Origin: a virus
Taxonomy: Duplodnaviria; Heunggongvirae; Uroviricota; Caudoviricetes
Length of the DNA: 40,135 nucleotides
Direction: 5' to 3' (one strand)
Virus record (IMG/VR): IMGVR_UViG_2547132278_000018
The notes beneath the pieces were generated by a model. That model was not told the DNA's origin. It did no database searches and saw nothing but the letters and a program-made list of their open reading frames with translations. Made by a program: the position numbers and the translations under genes. Positions 1,990 to 16,449 of the stretch are shown here, piece by piece; the stretch's first letter is position 1; each line of letters opens with the position of its first letter.

Positions 1990-3153
1990 TTACACATCAT
2001 TAGTACCTTCCTTATTTTTTGACTGGGACAAATTTGGGACCGATGGGTTCAGGATCGAGTCTATTTGCCGTGCGTGTTCGGTAAGGTGATTAGGTGCAAG
2101 GTGAGCATATCGACGAACCATTTCGATAGACTCCCAACCTCCCATTTCCTGTAACACTGACAACGGGACTCCGGCTTGAACCAGCCAACTTGCCCAGGTG
2201 TGTCTCAAGTCGTGAAATCTGAAATCATCAATATCAGCCCGTCTCAGCGCCGCTTTCCAGGCTGTGTTTGCGTCATACCGCATCTTCCTTACTGTTGGCG
2301 CTTTCGTTCCGTCTGGTTTGGTACAGCTTTCCTTGTACACAAATACCCAACGGTGATGATTCCCGATTTGTTTTTTCAATACGCGACATGCAGTATCATT
2401 CAGCGCAACGCCAATTGCGCGGTTTGATTTACTCTCTTCCGGGTTTATCCATGCCACCCGGCGCTGCATATCTATTTGTTGCCATTCAAGGTTGATGATG
2501 TTCGAGCGTCTTAAGCCTGTTGCCAGTGCAAATTCAACAACAGACTTTAATGGCTCCGGACATTCATCAATCAGCCTTTGTGCTTCATGGGGCTCCAGCC
2601 AGCGGATCCGTTTATTCTTTGGTTGAGGCACTTTAATAATTGGTGCCTTATCCAGCATTTTCCATTCACGCTCTGCGGCTCTTAGTAGGGCCTTTATAAA
2701 TGAAAGATGCGTAGCCTTCGTTGCAACGGACGCTGGTTTTGGCGTGTATTCTGGAACAGGTTTCCCTTTTTTTCTGCATGCTTCTGCCCTGAGTTTCCAG
2801 TTTTCCTCATGACGCCGGTTTGTCATTTTCTGCATTGCTGAATAAATTTTTGATTCAGTAATGTCTCTTAGTTGCATTCCTGCGAAATGTTGAAGCCAGA
2901 ATCCGATCCGGCTTTTGTCATCGTCCAGTGATTTTTTATGTGCTTTCTCTTCAAGCCACCTGACACACGCTTCCTCGAACGTTATATCAGGTATTTCACC
3001 AAGTTTGCTGACCCGCCATGCTTCAGCCTTTAGCTTGTCATGGAGTTCTGTCGCCTGCCTTTTGTCCTTTGTTCCAAGAGACTGTTTAAATCTTTTACCG
3101 TTCGGCAATGTGAAACTGGCGTACCATATTTCACCTCTGCGGAAGAGTGACAT
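1990..3153 (-). CDS. int: P22-type phage integrase
   Basis: 387 aa starting [31 protein letters not shown]...; closely resembles phage P22 Int as recalled; C-terminus abuts the thrW core. Confidence 0.93.
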
Positions 3154-11842: not shown

Positions 11843-12838
11843 GTGACCGTGAGAGCACTACTGACCCCTGAAATTGCCCCGCGTATGGGGATCGTATTGT
11901 TCAGGCCAGGTTCAGAGCTGATGCCCCTGTTTATGCAGGGGCGTGTCCTGCTGGAGCCTGAGCCGGAACGTTATTCATCTTTTGCCAGTGGTGCCGTTCC
12001 GGCGGCATCACAACCGCTGGCGGATGATCCTGCCGTTCGGGCCGTGTTCCGCAATGAGGCAGTGATCCGTCGTGCTGGTGGCGTGGAATGTCTTGAAAGC
12101 TGGTTACTTCGTGAAAAAGGCTGCCAGTGGCCTCATTCCGACTGGCACAGCGAGAACATGACCACAATGCGACACGCTCCGGGCGCAATCCGTCTGTGCT
12201 GGCACTGCGATAACCAGCTGCGCGATCAGTTCACGGAACGGCTGGAATCAATGGCAACGGATAACTGTGCTCGCTGGGTGTTGTCTGTCGTGCGTCGGGA
12301 TCTCGGTTTTGATGATAGTCACGTTATGACAATGCCGGAACTGTGCTGGTGGCTGGTTCGTAATGACCTGGCGGATGCCTTACCGGAAAGTGCAGCCCGT
12401 AAGGCTCTGAGATTACCGAAGCCTGTTGTGCCGTCTGTCACCCGGGAAAGTGACCTTGTGCCTTTGGTTCCTGCCACCAGCATCATCCAGGATAAAGCGA
12501 AAAAGGTGCTGGCGCTGAAAGTGGATCCGGAGTCGCCGGAGTCTTTTATGTTACGCCCGAAACGTCGCCGCTGGGTTAATGAAAAGTACACGCGCTGGGT
12601 TAAGACACAGCCGTGTGCATGTTGTGGAAAGCCTGCTGATGATCCCCACCACCTGATAGGCCACGGTCAGGGTGGAATGGGTACAAAAGCGCATGACCTC
12701 TTTGTGTTGCCTTTGTGCAGAAAGCATCACGACGAGCTGCATGCGGATACCGTGGCATTTGAAGAGAAGTATGGCTCCCAGCTGGAGCTGATATTTCGTT
12801 TTATCGATCGTGCGCTGGCAATAGGCGTACTGGCGTAA
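11843..12838 (+). CDS. DUF968-family protein with C-terminal HNH-like Cys/His cluster
   Basis: 331 aa; C-terminus CACCGKPADDPHHLIGHGQGGMGTKAHDLFVLPLCRKHHDELH. Confidence 0.7.
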   Translation: MTVRALLTPEIAPRMGIVLFRPGSELMPLFMQGRVLLEPEPERYSSFASGAVPAASQPLADDPAVRAVFRNEAVIRRAGGVECLESWLLREKGCQWPHSDWHSENMTTMRHAPGAIRLCWHCDNQLRDQFTERLESMATDNCARWVLSVVRRDLGFDDSHVMTMPELCWWLVRNDLADALPESAARKALRLPKPVVPSVTRESDLVPLVPATSIIQDKAKKVLALKVDPESPESFMLRPKRRRWVNEKYTRWVKTQPCACCGKPADDPHHLIGHGQGGMGTKAHDLFVLPLCRKHHDELHADTVAFEEKYGSQLELIFRFIDRALAIGVLA

Positions 12839-12852
12839 GTGGAGAATGCTAA

Positions 12853-13431
12853 ATGATTAATCCTTCTGAAGTTGGCAAATCAGGTGAAATGGTTCGCCTT
12901 CGTACTCTGGAAAGTATCTGGATACAAGGCAAGTTGCGCATGTGGGGCCGCTGGTCTTATATCGGCGGTGGTAGTGGTGGAAACATGTTTAACCAGCTTC
13001 TGGCATCCGGGAAAATCACCAAGACAGCTATCAATGAAGCGCTACGCCGGATGAAGATAGCGGGTATCACCAAGCCTGAACTTGAAGCGTACCTGCGTGA
13101 AATTCTCAACAGCAAAAATAAAAGCGGCCTGGCGTTCTGTTCAGATGAAGAAGGGTTGTTAGTGGACGGTGTCATTGCTTCAGTACTGATGAATGATGAC
13201 TACCGATCGCTCTATAGCGTGATTGTTGACCGGTATCGTCTTCGTAAGAGCAAGTTGCAGATGGCCAATGAACTGCAGGCTAAACATCCTGACTGGCCGC
13301 TGATCACCTGTCGTCGACGCATTGACACTTGGCTAAGTCTTGCAGAATCGATCCTGTACGCTCCAGTTTGTGACGCATTCGGCACAAATAGCGACAGATT
13401 TAAGTTGCAGAGTGAGCAAGAAAGTGCTTAA
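12853..13431 (+). CDS. Putative late-gene antiterminator (Q-like), by position
   Basis: 192 aa immediately upstream of a promoter/short leader/terminator unit and the lysis genes; no confident family recall. Confidence 0.45.
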   Translation: MINPSEVGKSGEMVRLRTLESIWIQGKLRMWGRWSYIGGGSGGNMFNQLLASGKITKTAINEALRRMKIAGITKPELEAYLREILNSKNKSGLAFCSDEEGLLVDGVIASVLMNDDYRSLYSVIVDRYRLRKSKLQMANELQAKHPDWPLITCRRRIDTWLSLAESILYAPVCDAFGTNSDRFKLQSEQESA

Positions 13432-13432
13432 A
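13404..13432 (+). promoter_or_regulatory. Putative late promoter pR'
   Basis: TTGCAG, 17 nt, TTAAAT overlapping the Q stop codon. Confidence 0.45.
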
Positions 13433-13482
13433 TTGTGGTAGGCTCGGGACGTTAAAGCGAACTGAGCAACACAACATTAATA

Positions 13483-13507
13483 GCCCGCCATTGAGCGGGT
13501 TTTTTTG
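13483..13507 (+). terminator. Rho-independent terminator (tR'-like)
   Basis: GCCCGC-CATTGA-GCGGGT followed by TTTTTTT. Confidence 0.7.
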
Positions 13508-13537
13508 TTATGATTCCTCTGAAACTCAGGAGGCTTC

Positions 13538-14134
13538 ATGACTTGGCAAAACGTACCGTACGCTTTCGAAAAAACTACTGGCGAGTTGACCTTGGTAATA
13601 GAAAAATTACCGCCAATTGAAATCAGTTCTTCCTTTCCTTTTGAAACACTCATTACTGCTCTTGCAGGCGTTATTGCCGCAGGAATAACTGGTTGGGTTG
13701 CATACAGGGCAATCAAAGAAAATTTTGCCTTAGCCACATTACAGGCTCACTTGAATACTAATAAAGAATTGGCGCAACAAATACGTTTTGCTGGCGCTGA
13801 GCATGTGACAGACGTAATTATGTTGGCCAGCACATTTGAGCAATGGCATCTGGTCGGAAATAAGAATATGGATATATTGGCTAAGGGTGTTTTCCCTGAG
13901 GAGATTCAAGTTCCAATAAAGGCCGCTGAAATAAGTAAAAATAAATTACTTCTATTAATAAGGCCTGATGAGGAAGGTTGTAAGTTGATAACCCTGACGG
14001 CAGATCTTCAAAAAGCGCTAAAAGTATGTTTTACAAAAGGGTATTTTACTCCGGAAGAAAAAAAGTCATTTATTGATGCACAAAACGCCTTTATTTTTGG
14101 GTGTCATGAGTATATCAATCAAAGTTTATCTTAA
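13538..14134 (+). CDS. Moron: 198-aa single-pass membrane protein of unknown function
   Basis: AGGAGG RBS; one hydrophobic helix (LITALAGVIAAGITGWVAY); AT-rich; bracketed by terminators. Confidence 0.65.
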   Translation: MTWQNVPYAFEKTTGELTLVIEKLPPIEISSSFPFETLITALAGVIAAGITGWVAYRAIKENFALATLQAHLNTNKELAQQIRFAGAEHVTDVIMLASTFEQWHLVGNKNMDILAKGVFPEEIQVPIKAAEISKNKLLLLIRPDEEGCKLITLTADLQKALKVCFTKGYFTPEEKKSFIDAQNAFIFGCHEYINQSLS

Positions 14135-14151
14135 AAAAACTATACCTTACC

Positions 14152-14178
14152 AAGGCCGCCTTAATGCGGCCTTTTTTG
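14152..14178 (+). terminator. Rho-independent terminator
   Basis: AAGGCCGCC-TTAAT-GCGGCCTT followed by TTTTTT. Confidence 0.7.
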
Positions 14179-14224
14179 TTTCCCCTCGTTCTGAGAGGAC
14201 CAACAGCAATTAAGAGGGGGCTAA

Positions 14225-14611
14225 ATGTCCGATCCGATTTCCGGTACTGGGCTGGCTGGTGGTGCCCTGACGGGTGCCAGTGTTTATGGACTGCTGACCG
14301 GAACTGATTACGGCGTTGTATTTGGCGCATTTGCAGGGGCTGTATTCTACATAGCAACAGCTGCAGATCTGAGTGCATCGCGCCGACTGGCATATTTTAT
14401 CGTGTCATATATTGCCGGGATTCTTTGCTCTGGGTTGGTTGGCTCCAAGCTGGCGAACTTGACCGGATACAGTGATAAACCTCTGGATGCTATTGGTGCC
14501 GTAATCGTCTCTGCTTTAGCCGTTAAAATCCTGACGTTCCTGAATAATCAGGATATCGGCTCGCTGGTGGCGCTCATAACGCGCCGGGGAGGTTCAGGTG
14601 GAGCTAAATGA
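14225..14611 (+). CDS. Putative holin (multi-TM small membrane protein)
   Basis: 128 aa, strongly hydrophobic, AGAGGGGG RBS, first gene of lysis cassette. Confidence 0.55.
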   Translation: MSDPISGTGLAGGALTGASVYGLLTGTDYGVVFGAFAGAVFYIATAADLSASRRLAYFIVSYIAGILCSGLVGSKLANLTGYSDKPLDAIGAVIVSALAVKILTFLNNQDIGSLVALITRRGGSGGAK

Positions 14612-14879
14612 CCCGACAGCAACTATAAATGCGCTGTTATGTGCTTGTGTTGTTATTACTCTGATGTTTTATCGTCGTGGTGATTCGCGGCATCGTCCTT
14701 GGGTTTCACGTTTAGCCTGGCTGATTACTGTTACATACAGTGCTGTTCCGTTGGCCTATCTCTGTGGGATTTATCCCCATTCCTCATGGCCCATTATCGT
14801 GGCGAACACTATTTTTCTTTCCGTGCTGGTGGCTGTCAGAGGCAACGTTGCACGTCTGGTTGATCATCTGAGGCACTAA
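14598..14879 (+). CDS. Putative second holin/antiholin-like membrane protein
   Basis: 93 aa, two to three hydrophobic segments, overlaps neighbours. Confidence 0.5.
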   Translation: MELNDPTATINALLCACVVITLMFYRRGDSRHRPWVSRLAWLITVTYSAVPLAYLCGIYPHSSWPIIVANTIFLSVLVAVRGNVARLVDHLRH

Positions 14880-15493
14880 TGAACCAACAATTATTTCAAA
14901 AGGCGGCTGGTATTAGCGCCGGGCTGGCTGCGCGCTGGTTTCCGCACATTGATGCGGCGATGAAGGAATTCGGCATTACAGCACCAGCGGATCAGGCAAT
15001 GTTTATCGCTCAGGTAGGCCATGAGTCGATGGGGTTTAGCGCCGTAGTTGAAAATCTTAACTACACACCATCTGCGCTTGTGGCGACGTTCGGAAAGAGG
15101 ATCACACAGCAGCAGGCTGATGCCCTTGGCAGAACATCCGGACATGCAGCTCGTCAGGATGCTATTGCCAATCTGGTGTATAGCAACCGACTGGGTAACA
15201 AAGCACCAGGTGATGGCTGGAAATATCGTGGTAGAGGATTAATTCAAATCACTGGCCTCCATAATTATCGCATCTGTGGCGCGGCGCTGAAGTTAGATCT
15301 GGTGACTTCACCTGAACAACTGGAACAGGAACTACAGGCTGCGCGCTCAGCTGCATGGTTCTACACCTCTAAAGGTTGCATGATCTACGGTGCCGATATT
15401 AACCGTGTTACGCGCATCATTAACGGCGGTTTGAACGGTATTGAGGATCGTAAGGTCCGATACAACAAGGCGCGGGCGGCGCTGCTGGTATGA
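14879..15493 (+). CDS. Endolysin, glycoside hydrolase family 19 (chitinase-like lysozyme)
   Basis: 204 aa; GH19-type motifs recalled (FIAQVGHES, GRGLIQITG). Confidence 0.8.
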   Translation: MNQQLFQKAAGISAGLAARWFPHIDAAMKEFGITAPADQAMFIAQVGHESMGFSAVVENLNYTPSALVATFGKRITQQQADALGRTSGHAARQDAIANLVYSNRLGNKAPGDGWKYRGRGLIQITGLHNYRICGAALKLDLVTSPEQLEQELQAARSAAWFYTSKGCMIYGADINRVTRIINGGLNGIEDRKVRYNKARAALLV

Positions 15494-15882
15494 AGATGAG
15501 TTATTGGGCGCTCATTTTAACGTTTATTGCTTGTGTCGCTGGTGGTCTTGTCTGGTCAGCGAATCACTATCATGGAAAGTTTCTGGAGGAGCAGAAGCGT
15601 GCTGATGCTGCGGAACAGCGAGCTGATTCTACTGAGGCTATCACCGCGAATGTTCTGCGTACTATGGCAATAACGAACATCATTCAGGAGGCGAATCAAC
15701 ATGCAAAACAGCAGATCGCACTGGAGTCACAGAGAACCCAGGAAGATATCAAAGTGGCTGTTGCGGATGATGATTGTGCTTCACGTCCTGTGCCTGCTGC
15801 CGCTGCTGACCGGTTGCGGAAGTACGCGAACAGTTTACGTCCAGGTTCCGGTAGTTCCGTTACCAGCCAGCCTGACGGCTGA
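15490..15882 (+). CDS. i-spanin (Rz-like)
   Basis: 130 aa; N-terminal TM helix then coiled-coil-like Q/A/E-rich region. Confidence 0.7.
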   Translation: MKMSYWALILTFIACVAGGLVWSANHYHGKFLEEQKRADAAEQRADSTEAITANVLRTMAITNIIQEANQHAKQQIALESQRTQEDIKVAVADDDCASRPVPAAAADRLRKYANSLRPGSGSSVTSQPDG

Positions 15883-16128: not shown

Positions 16129-16449
16129 ATGAAAGATGGTATCTATTTTGTTGTTTTCAGAAGCAATCAACGTGATTTTGGTAATGGTACCGTAGTTGTC
16201 AAAAACAATGCAGTAAACGGCGGAGATTTTGGTTTTACGTATCAGGGAAAAATTGACGGTAGCCAACTTATTCTGCGCGTATCGCAGCATGATTTAAATG
16301 TCACCTCGGTTTTCCCTGGGGTAAAGAACTTTGAATTGAGTCTTTCTTTGCAGGAACGAGGACGTGATTACCTGTTAAATGGATCTGTGGTCGGAATGCC
16401 TCAGATGCAAATTTCAATTAGTGCAAAATACATTGGTGATCTGATTTAG
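16129..16449 (+). CDS. GrlR-like protein (moron downstream of lysis cassette)
   Basis: 106 aa beginning MKDGIYFVVF...; recalled as matching the GrlR family; AT-rich, own promoter-like sequence and terminator. Confidence 0.5.
   Translation: MKDGIYFVVFRSNQRDFGNGTVVVKNNAVNGGDFGFTYQGKIDGSQLILRVSQHDLNVTSVFPGVKNFELSLSLQERGRDYLLNGSVVGMPQMQISISAKYIGDLI

Follow-up and report, generated by a model that had tools for sequence, protein, structure and literature searches.

The window analysed here, a 40,135-nucleotide (nt) stretch of a Caudoviricetes virus (IMG/VR record IMGVR_UViG_2547132278_000018), is a complete SfV/e14-like prophage with genes for an integrase (1990-3153), a CI-type repressor, the late antiterminator Q, a lysis cassette, an HK97-type head, a contractile tail and an invertase. 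Between the Q gene and the first holin gene lies an open reading frame (ORF) for a 198-amino-acid (aa) protein, which is the subject of this study. The gene forms part of an inserted cassette, composed of a spacer with a ribosome-binding site (RBS), the ORF and an intrinsic terminator of its own (Table 1). This cassette is late-operon cargo of lambdoid phages, and its product belongs to no characterised protein family. The Q gene also matches PHROG 753 ("anti-termination protein Q-like"), and the holin gene is followed by a Phage_holin_3_7 gene, a GH19 endolysin gene and spanin genes. Positions 13432-14224 recur with 100% identity within a prophage adjoining tRNA-Thr/proA in Escherichia coli SW07091.

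Table 1. Features between the Q gene and the holin gene, with positions in the window. TM, transmembrane segment; AF2, AlphaFold2.
Feature	Position	Strand	Basis
Q-type late antiterminator gene, 192 aa; outside the cassette	12853..13431	+	Pfam DUF1133 3.4e-92, Phage_antitermQ 1.8e-08
Putative late promoter (pR' equivalent): TTGCAG (13405-13410), 17 nt, TGc extended -10, TTAAAT (13428-13433)	13405..13433	+	Read from sequence; overlaps the Q stop codon
Late-transcript leader	13440..13481	+	Conserved alignment block; hairpin 13442-13467 conserved
tR'-equivalent intrinsic terminator of the Q module	13482..13509	+	Hairpin 13482-13501 and T7 run
Inserted cassette: 30-nt spacer with RBS, ORF, own terminator	about 13507..14179	+	Homology breakpoints, GC drop
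Shine-Dalgarno AGGAGG	13528..13533	+	Read from sequence; 4 nt before the ATG
198-aa ORF, ATG start	13538..14134	+	ORF listing
Predicted bitopic inner-membrane protein: acidic N-tail 1-35, TM 37-55, four-helix bundle 59-196	13538..14134	+	PHROG, AF2, charge bias
A7 homopolymer within the ORF	14058..14064	+	Compared with variant P0002
Cassette's own intrinsic terminator	14152..14179	+	Hairpin 14152-14173 and T6 run
Conserved holin leader and RBS (TTCCCCTC..GAGAGGAC..AAGAGGGGGC), part of the lysis module	14180..14224	+	Conserved in 8/8 aligned loci
Holin gene, first of the lysis cassette	14225..14611	+	Phage_holin_8 1.2e-34

The limits of the cassette are set by two homology breakpoints. The Q module resembles Klebsiella phages (about 76% identity) across the promoter, the leader and the first terminator, up to 13506; from 14180 onward, the lysis module resembles phages SKA5 and 118970_sal3 (99%). 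The shared holin leader starts with TTTCCCCTC at about 14180. GC content drops to 0.34-0.41 across 13500-14200, compared with 0.47-0.55 in the flanks (about 0.50); that of the ORF alone is 0.386, a low value matched in its orthologues. The cassette terminator folds as RNA with -14.3 kcal/mol (z = -4.75 against shuffled sequences), and an alignment of the regions upstream of the holin gene showed that it is absent from relatives without the gene. Orthologues at 70-75% identity sit behind three different Q families and share the 30-nt spacer and the RBS, with the junction at the terminator T-run. In E. coli strain ARL09/232 the cassette is 99% identical while Q is merely 94% identical, which argues that the cassette moves as a unit. 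Among 5426 complete E. coli genomes, 31 hold it.

Two allelic forms of the ORF were noted. In ARL09/232 itself (locus L005, 3148-3880), codon 28 is changed from GAA to TAA, and RefSeq annotates only a 127-aa C-terminal fragment. A second variant, P0002 (16 member sequences, 31 contigs), has A6 at the A7 run and encodes a frameshifted 224-aa product; its frame shifts after EEK and reads across the cassette terminator to a TAA at 14211-14213, just before the holin RBS. This variant could reflect slippage, decay or sequencing error.

The elements upstream of the cassette have a different history. The 3' end of Q in the window was aligned with those of seven further prophages sharing its Q family; the 198-aa gene is missing from six of the seven. 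The promoter hexamers, the leader hairpin at 13442-13467 and the terminator are all conserved in this alignment, including in the gene-less prophages, where homology stops exactly past the T-run. Because they are conserved in prophages without the gene, the promoter and the first terminator are assigned to the Q module, and the alignment indicates that promoter, leader and terminator together are its pR'/tR' unit rather than parts of the cassette. The terminator (-11.1 kcal/mol as RNA, z = -3.1 against shuffled sequences) varies in its stem with compensating changes among the aligned prophages; together with the leader it folds with -26.6 kcal/mol (z = -4.8). An Rfam search returned only sub-threshold amino-acid-leader matches, which reflect the terminators. 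An earlier note on this DNA had described an element bracketed by hairpin terminators at about 13482-13507 and 14152-14178. Scan and folding agree on both hairpins, but only the downstream one is owned by the cassette, the upstream one being tR' of the Q module. The same note had placed a pR'-like promoter over the Q stop codon. The motif is indeed present, although it agrees with the consensus at only 7/12 positions and falls below the promoter-scan threshold. Since promoter and leader hardly vary among DUF1133-type Q prophages, whereas the Q genes themselves share only about 76% identity, the pR' assignment is plausible but not proven. Conservation of the leader exceeds that of the Q coding sequence, and its near-invariant hairpin (GCUCGGGACGUUAAAGCGAACUGAGC), between the putative pR' and tR', is a candidate Q-loading or pause region of the uncharacterised DUF1133 Q family.

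Relatives with the same Q or lysis genes fill the interval differently. It holds an 85-aa ORF in SKA5 and 118970_sal3, and in others a gene named "TciA", a minus-strand gene, a gene disrupted by an insertion sequence, or no recognisable gene. The SKA5 lysis module is 99.3% identical over the aligned holin-to-endolysin stretch and lacks the gene. These comparisons indicate that the Q-to-holin interval is a variable cargo slot, as the earlier note had proposed, and that the 198-aa gene is accessory and not core.

Further cargo in or near the slot was seen at L007 (3155-3751, minus strand), L009 (3159-4954), L003 (3799-4224), L033 (4734-6274, minus strand) and L031 (1-833, minus strand). The occupants include an unrelated 198-aa minus-strand protein, whose gene is interrupted by ISKpn26 in strain TST3, and a HicAB toxin-antitoxin pair, also on the minus strand; "TciA" is the occupant in Klebsiella phage 1 LV-2017. 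One Enterobacter prophage carries a Pycsar-like PycTM and cyclase pair just upstream of the late region. Two occupants were considered as relatives of our protein and rejected: the 198-aa minus-strand gene in strain 5CRE51 is unrelated despite its equal length, and so is "TciA" of Klebsiella phage 1 (hhalign probability 0.1).

The family as a whole keeps a strict position. We examined 20 loci, not all of them independent: that of the window, one in an isolated phage, and others on contigs from genomes, metagenomes and IMG/VR. A Q homologue precedes the family gene in 19 of these and a holin or endolysin gene follows it, all on the same strand; the sole exception to the Q context is a decayed element adjoining an integrase gene (L016). 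The family gene starts 110-184 nt past Q in 11/20 loci, a distance with room only for pR', leader and tR'. Depending on the locus, the upstream Q is of the DUF1133, PF06323, PF06530 or PF03589 type, four Pfam families unrelated to each other, and the downstream lysis cassettes vary as well, comprising holin_8/3_7 with GH19, P21-type pinholin with signal-anchor-release (SAR) lysozyme, and others. Of 17 loci, 12 have a terminator-like hairpin no more than 120 nt upstream of the gene and 14 have one no more than 250 nt downstream, against a background of 0.92 per kb. An intact family copy is also kept in a decayed prophage remnant (L029/L030).

The isolated phage is Escherichia phage LLS (PQ299149.1, isolated on K-12), in which a family member directly follows tR'. 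Its annotated genes 49 and 50 (L028, 3441-4103) appear to be one mis-split family member, likely starting at the ATG at L028:3498 (MWQGIPF...), 28 nt past a tR'-like terminator. A tblastn search of 50,697 phage records gave no match with the query or with family member P0015, and a single weak one, to phage LLS, with member P0039. In five loci of Proteus/Morganellaceae-type prophages (L021, L022, L024, L025 and L027), a minus-strand ORF of about 900 nt lies directly upstream of the family gene and is divergent from it. Its conserved product of 300-311 aa has no Pfam match and may be a functional partner or separate cargo.

At the protein level, the only family match is PHROG 18859 (E 7.3e-91, residues 1-198 of 198), which has no function, name or literature attached. 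No family was recognised in Pfam, NCBIfam or PADLOC, either with the query or in scans of 33 family members. PADLOC-DB v2 gave zero matches to the query and, among the 33 members, scattered chance-level ones (one or two members each, E of at least 5e-4). No holin, antiholin, endolysin or spanin family was matched in Pfam, PHROG or NCBIfam. Every database name is "hypothetical protein", including that of WP_000220228.1, which is identical to our protein and occurs on at least 1000 E. coli contigs, with further cluster members in Citrobacter, Salmonella and Shigella; a literature search by accession, PHROG identifier and DUF1133 returned nothing on the protein. The features that the earlier note listed for the gene and its product, namely the 198-aa ORF, the AGGAGG RBS, the AT-richness and the single N-proximal hydrophobic helix, are all present. 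No characterised family was recognised, no confident lysis-family match emerged, and related phages do without the gene.

A word-indexed search identified 11 close clusters (70-99% identity), named in E. coli and Enterobacter. An exhaustive search with a hidden Markov model showed the family to be rare, with 36 representatives at 50% clustering across Enterobacterales, mostly of 190-232 aa, and a few shorter fragments among them. Conservation is concentrated in the N-terminal ~100 residues (W3, P7, P25, F33, A55, N62, Q69 and R83), and the C-terminal part is unalignable. Purifying selection between orthologues is strong, with 0.12-0.17 for the proportion of nonsynonymous differences (pN) against a saturated 0.71-0.88 for synonymous ones (pS), and the gene is therefore real.

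The protein has a single hydrophobic segment, residues 37-55. A first AF2 run with 11 close sequences reached a mean predicted local distance difference test score (pLDDT) of only 41, and this model was discarded; with 46 sequences the mean pLDDT was 81.5. In the latter model residues 1-28 are predicted to be disordered, a continuous helix (35-106) contains the transmembrane segment, and three more long helices and a short one (111-115) complete a four-helix bundle, which diverges rapidly between subfamilies. Over the 46 sequences, 132 lysine or arginine residues fall within 15 residues on the C-terminal side of the transmembrane segment and 40 on the N-terminal side, and the N-tail is net acidic in nearly all members. 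Since, by the positive-inside rule, such an excess marks the cytoplasmic side, an N-out/C-in topology is predicted, with a periplasmic N-tail of about 35 residues and a cytoplasmic bundle.

Comparisons with known structures were less informative. Searches of PDB sequences with profiles of 11 and 46 sequences returned only coiled-coil or helical noise (E of at least 0.05), and Foldseek found nothing below E 0.02 in the PDB and nothing below E 0.005 among the BFVD viral structures. Two candidate features were dropped: a metal site formed by H104, C164, C189 and H190 is conserved in the closest subfamilies only, and a SAR-like transmembrane segment rich in Gly, Ala and Thr is confined to the query's subfamily.

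How the gene is transcribed follows largely from its surroundings. The 30 nt that separate the tR' T-run from the ATG are taken up by the RBS, and a promoter scan of 12500-15500 found no promoter-like site on the plus strand. Because this spacer holds no promoter and the promoter upstream belongs to the Q module, autonomous expression of the gene, as put forward in the earlier note, is not supported and appears unlikely. In lambdoid late control, Q-modified polymerase starting from pR' reads past tR'. The pR' at the 3' end of Q would be the sole evident transcription source of the cassette: Q-modified RNA polymerase ignoring tR' would transcribe the gene, which would otherwise receive only leakage through tR', and the cassette terminator would halt unmodified polymerases ahead of the holin gene. 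The orientation of the gene agrees with this. HicAB (L033) and unrelated genes (L007, L009 and L013) in the same slot lie on the opposite strand, and in phi80 the divergent immunity gene is expressed in the lysogen while the co-oriented genes are Q-dependent (PMC11364771). Unlike such opposite-strand, lysogen-type cargo, the 198-aa gene is co-oriented with the late operon, which fits Q-controlled late expression; its anatomy points to Q-dependent timing.

With about even confidence, we read the cassette as promoterless RBS-ORF-terminator cargo of a lambdoid/SfV-like prophage that provides an inner-membrane factor mainly for lytic growth. It would have entered by recombination; it starts exactly at the tR' T-run and ends just short of the conserved holin leader. 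Its product would be non-essential and would work at the inner membrane, chiefly while the phage grows lytically. As its activity we favour hindering phages that compete or superinfect, or else conditioning the envelope, over a part in lysis tied to one holin. Several points weigh against this account. Its functional part is a guess, Q dependence is deduced from anatomy and the topology from the positive-inside rule, while the nearest folds, the four-helix-bundle sensors of methyl-accepting chemotaxis proteins (MCPs) and histidine kinases, are periplasmic. Moreover, pure Q control needs neither the first position past tR' nor a downstream terminator, both of which make more sense with low expression in the lysogen through tR' leakage. 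Finally, the gene lacks an upstream terminator in the Morganellaceae loci (L021-L027), where it comes after a divergent gene, and it could have a promoter of its own there; promoter-like sites in these loci occur at chance level.

The main alternative, which we regard as unlikely, is in line with the earlier note: a lysogen-benefit defence gene, acting in superinfection exclusion or abortive infection and expressed from the prophage through an undetected promoter of its own or, more plausibly, through constitutive pR' transcription leaking past tR'. In that case the terminator of the cassette would shield the cell against expression of the holin. Leak-through of this kind fits the persistent first position past tR' and the greater strength of the downstream terminator (-14.3 against -11.1 kcal/mol). 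A cassette that is foreign in composition, sporadic and mobile, the retention of an intact copy in a decayed prophage, and a conserved N-terminal part combined with a fast-diverging C-terminal domain, as is typical of sensor-type arms races, also suit a defence function. However, the scan revealed no promoter, none of the 33 members matches a PADLOC or Pfam defence family, and the gene runs in the direction of the late operon, unlike the divergent lysogen-type cargo found in this slot. In addition, the nonsense allele at codon 28 and the frameshift allele on 31 contigs occur in lysogens.

More doubtful is a lysis-timing accessory, antiholin-like or modulating the proton-motive force, that is co-transcribed with the lysis cassette and acts on it. 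Late accessory genes are known to include dispensable ones for lysis timing, such as P2 lysA, T4 rI and P1 lydB, and a membrane-protein gene just 5' of the holin gene in the late transcript would be well placed for such a role. The weakly hydrophobic, Gly-, Ala- and Thr-rich transmembrane segment of the query's subfamily would also suit it. This composition is not conserved family-wide, however, and neither membership of a lysis family nor obligate pairing with one lysis cassette was found. Orthologues at 70-99% identity adjoin holin_8/3_7, P21-type pinholin and other holins, so that a single subfamily is found with three or more types of holin; in SKA5 and 118970_sal3, almost identical lysis modules function in the absence of the gene; and often 1-2 kb of other cargo, including opposite-strand genes, intervenes before the holin gene. 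Because the same subfamily pairs with different holins and the SKA5 module lacks the gene, a holin-specific antiholin role in particular seems unlikely.

A host-directed conversion factor affecting envelope, signalling or virulence, in which the bundle, akin to the sensor domains of chemoreceptors and histidine kinases, would serve as a decoy or a sensor, is improbable. The resemblance on which it builds is to a generic fold, since talin, catenin and de novo designed bundles score alike; no Foldseek match has E < 0.02, identities are 4-14%, a second transmembrane segment and an output domain are absent, and the predicted location of the bundle is the cytoplasm. The reading of the ORF as spurious or non-functional sequence within an AT-rich spacer, to which the label "hypothetical protein" and some truncated copies might point, is hardly credible and is effectively refuted by the pN/pS values, the 36 relatives at 50% clustering with a shared architecture, the confident AF2 model and a strong, conserved RBS.

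A bolder reading is also conceivable, although we rate it as speculative and doubtful. The family may be a dedicated "first late gene" module, deliberately promoterless between two terminators, whose dose would be set by tR' read-through, with a trace in the lysogen and a burst after Q. It could represent a new kind of membrane effector, for instance a sensor-effector aimed at phage competitors, or a counter-defence produced late but ahead of those structural proteins to which host immunity responds. Lambdoid phages with any of the four Q families would have it in common.

Elsewhere in the window, two further regions deserve mention. At its left end lie tandem tyrosine-integrase genes on the minus strand (443-1765 and 1990-3153), of which the outer one (443-1765; 439 aa, Arm-DNA-bind_3 and Phage_integrase domains) is presumably part of an adjacent element. 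A second low-GC patch (0.36-0.43) holds a GrlR-like ORF of 106 aa (16129-16449, plus strand) between the spanin genes and HNH/terS. This ORF matches PHROG 2483; its Pfam GrlR match (6.6e-06) narrowly misses the gathering cut-off, and its NCBIfam GrlR match falls well short of the cut-off. RefSeq names it "GrlR family regulatory protein". A homologue lies within the Q-holin slot of locus L025 (5649-5969), adjoining a member of the 198-aa protein family.

These results turn an anonymous ORF into a defined family with a fixed address (first gene past tR', behind four Q types), a cassette structure, and a model of fold and topology, and so make the gene amenable to further study. The unusually strict positional conservation is the feature worth following. 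In lambdoid phages the Q-to-lysis interval carries Shiga toxin and other conversion genes, and what the slot contains and how it is expressed therefore matter for prophage biology. If the product acts in phage exclusion, lysis tuning or counter-defence, the cassette would represent a new late-operon accessory function, and also a case in which terminators, not a promoter, fix gene dosage. Should no phenotype emerge, the gene would be an ordinary hypothetical cargo gene.

Among known systems, the four-helix sensors TorS (3i9w), McpN (6gcv), NarQ (5iji) and Tar (1lih) resemble the protein only in their generic fold, at 4-13% identity. Domains of the 4HB_MCP and histidine-kinase sensor type have a periplasmic bundle between a first and a second transmembrane segment and a cytoplasmic signalling module; the 198-aa protein departs from this arrangement, with no Pfam match, second transmembrane segment, HAMP domain or kinase/signalling module and with a bundle predicted to be cytoplasmic. 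In genomic placement and presumed control, the cassette resembles the cargo of Stx phages, in which stx2AB lies between pR'/tR' and the lysis genes and is Q-dependent. As with stx, a foreign gene is located past Q, pR' and tR', ahead of the holin gene and on the same strand, and its expression would ride on Q antitermination. Unlike stx, the cassette begins right at the tR' T-run, has its own terminator, and encodes a membrane-anchored four-helix bundle instead of an AB5 toxin.

The classical lambdoid morons include HK97 gp15, a small inner-membrane protein, and lambda bor and lom. The cassette shares with morons in the sense of Hendrix and Juhala its insertion between genes that are adjacent in related phages, a nucleotide composition deviating from that of its flanks, and a downstream terminator of its own, and its product, like HK97 gp15 (cited in PMC11364771), is a small inner-membrane protein. 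It differs from them in the absence of the defining promoter for autonomous expression, in its location in the Q-lysis slot rather than the tail region, and in having no sequence similarity. The taiEcA/atiEcA genes of phi80 (PMC11364771) encode unrelated proteins, no partner gene is evident at our cassette, and most Tai homologues lie upstream of the packaging module, not directly past tR' (PMC11364771). The two systems nevertheless share the principle of accessory cargo within a Q-controlled late operon, where in phi80 it is orientation that sets the regime of expression (PMC11364771).

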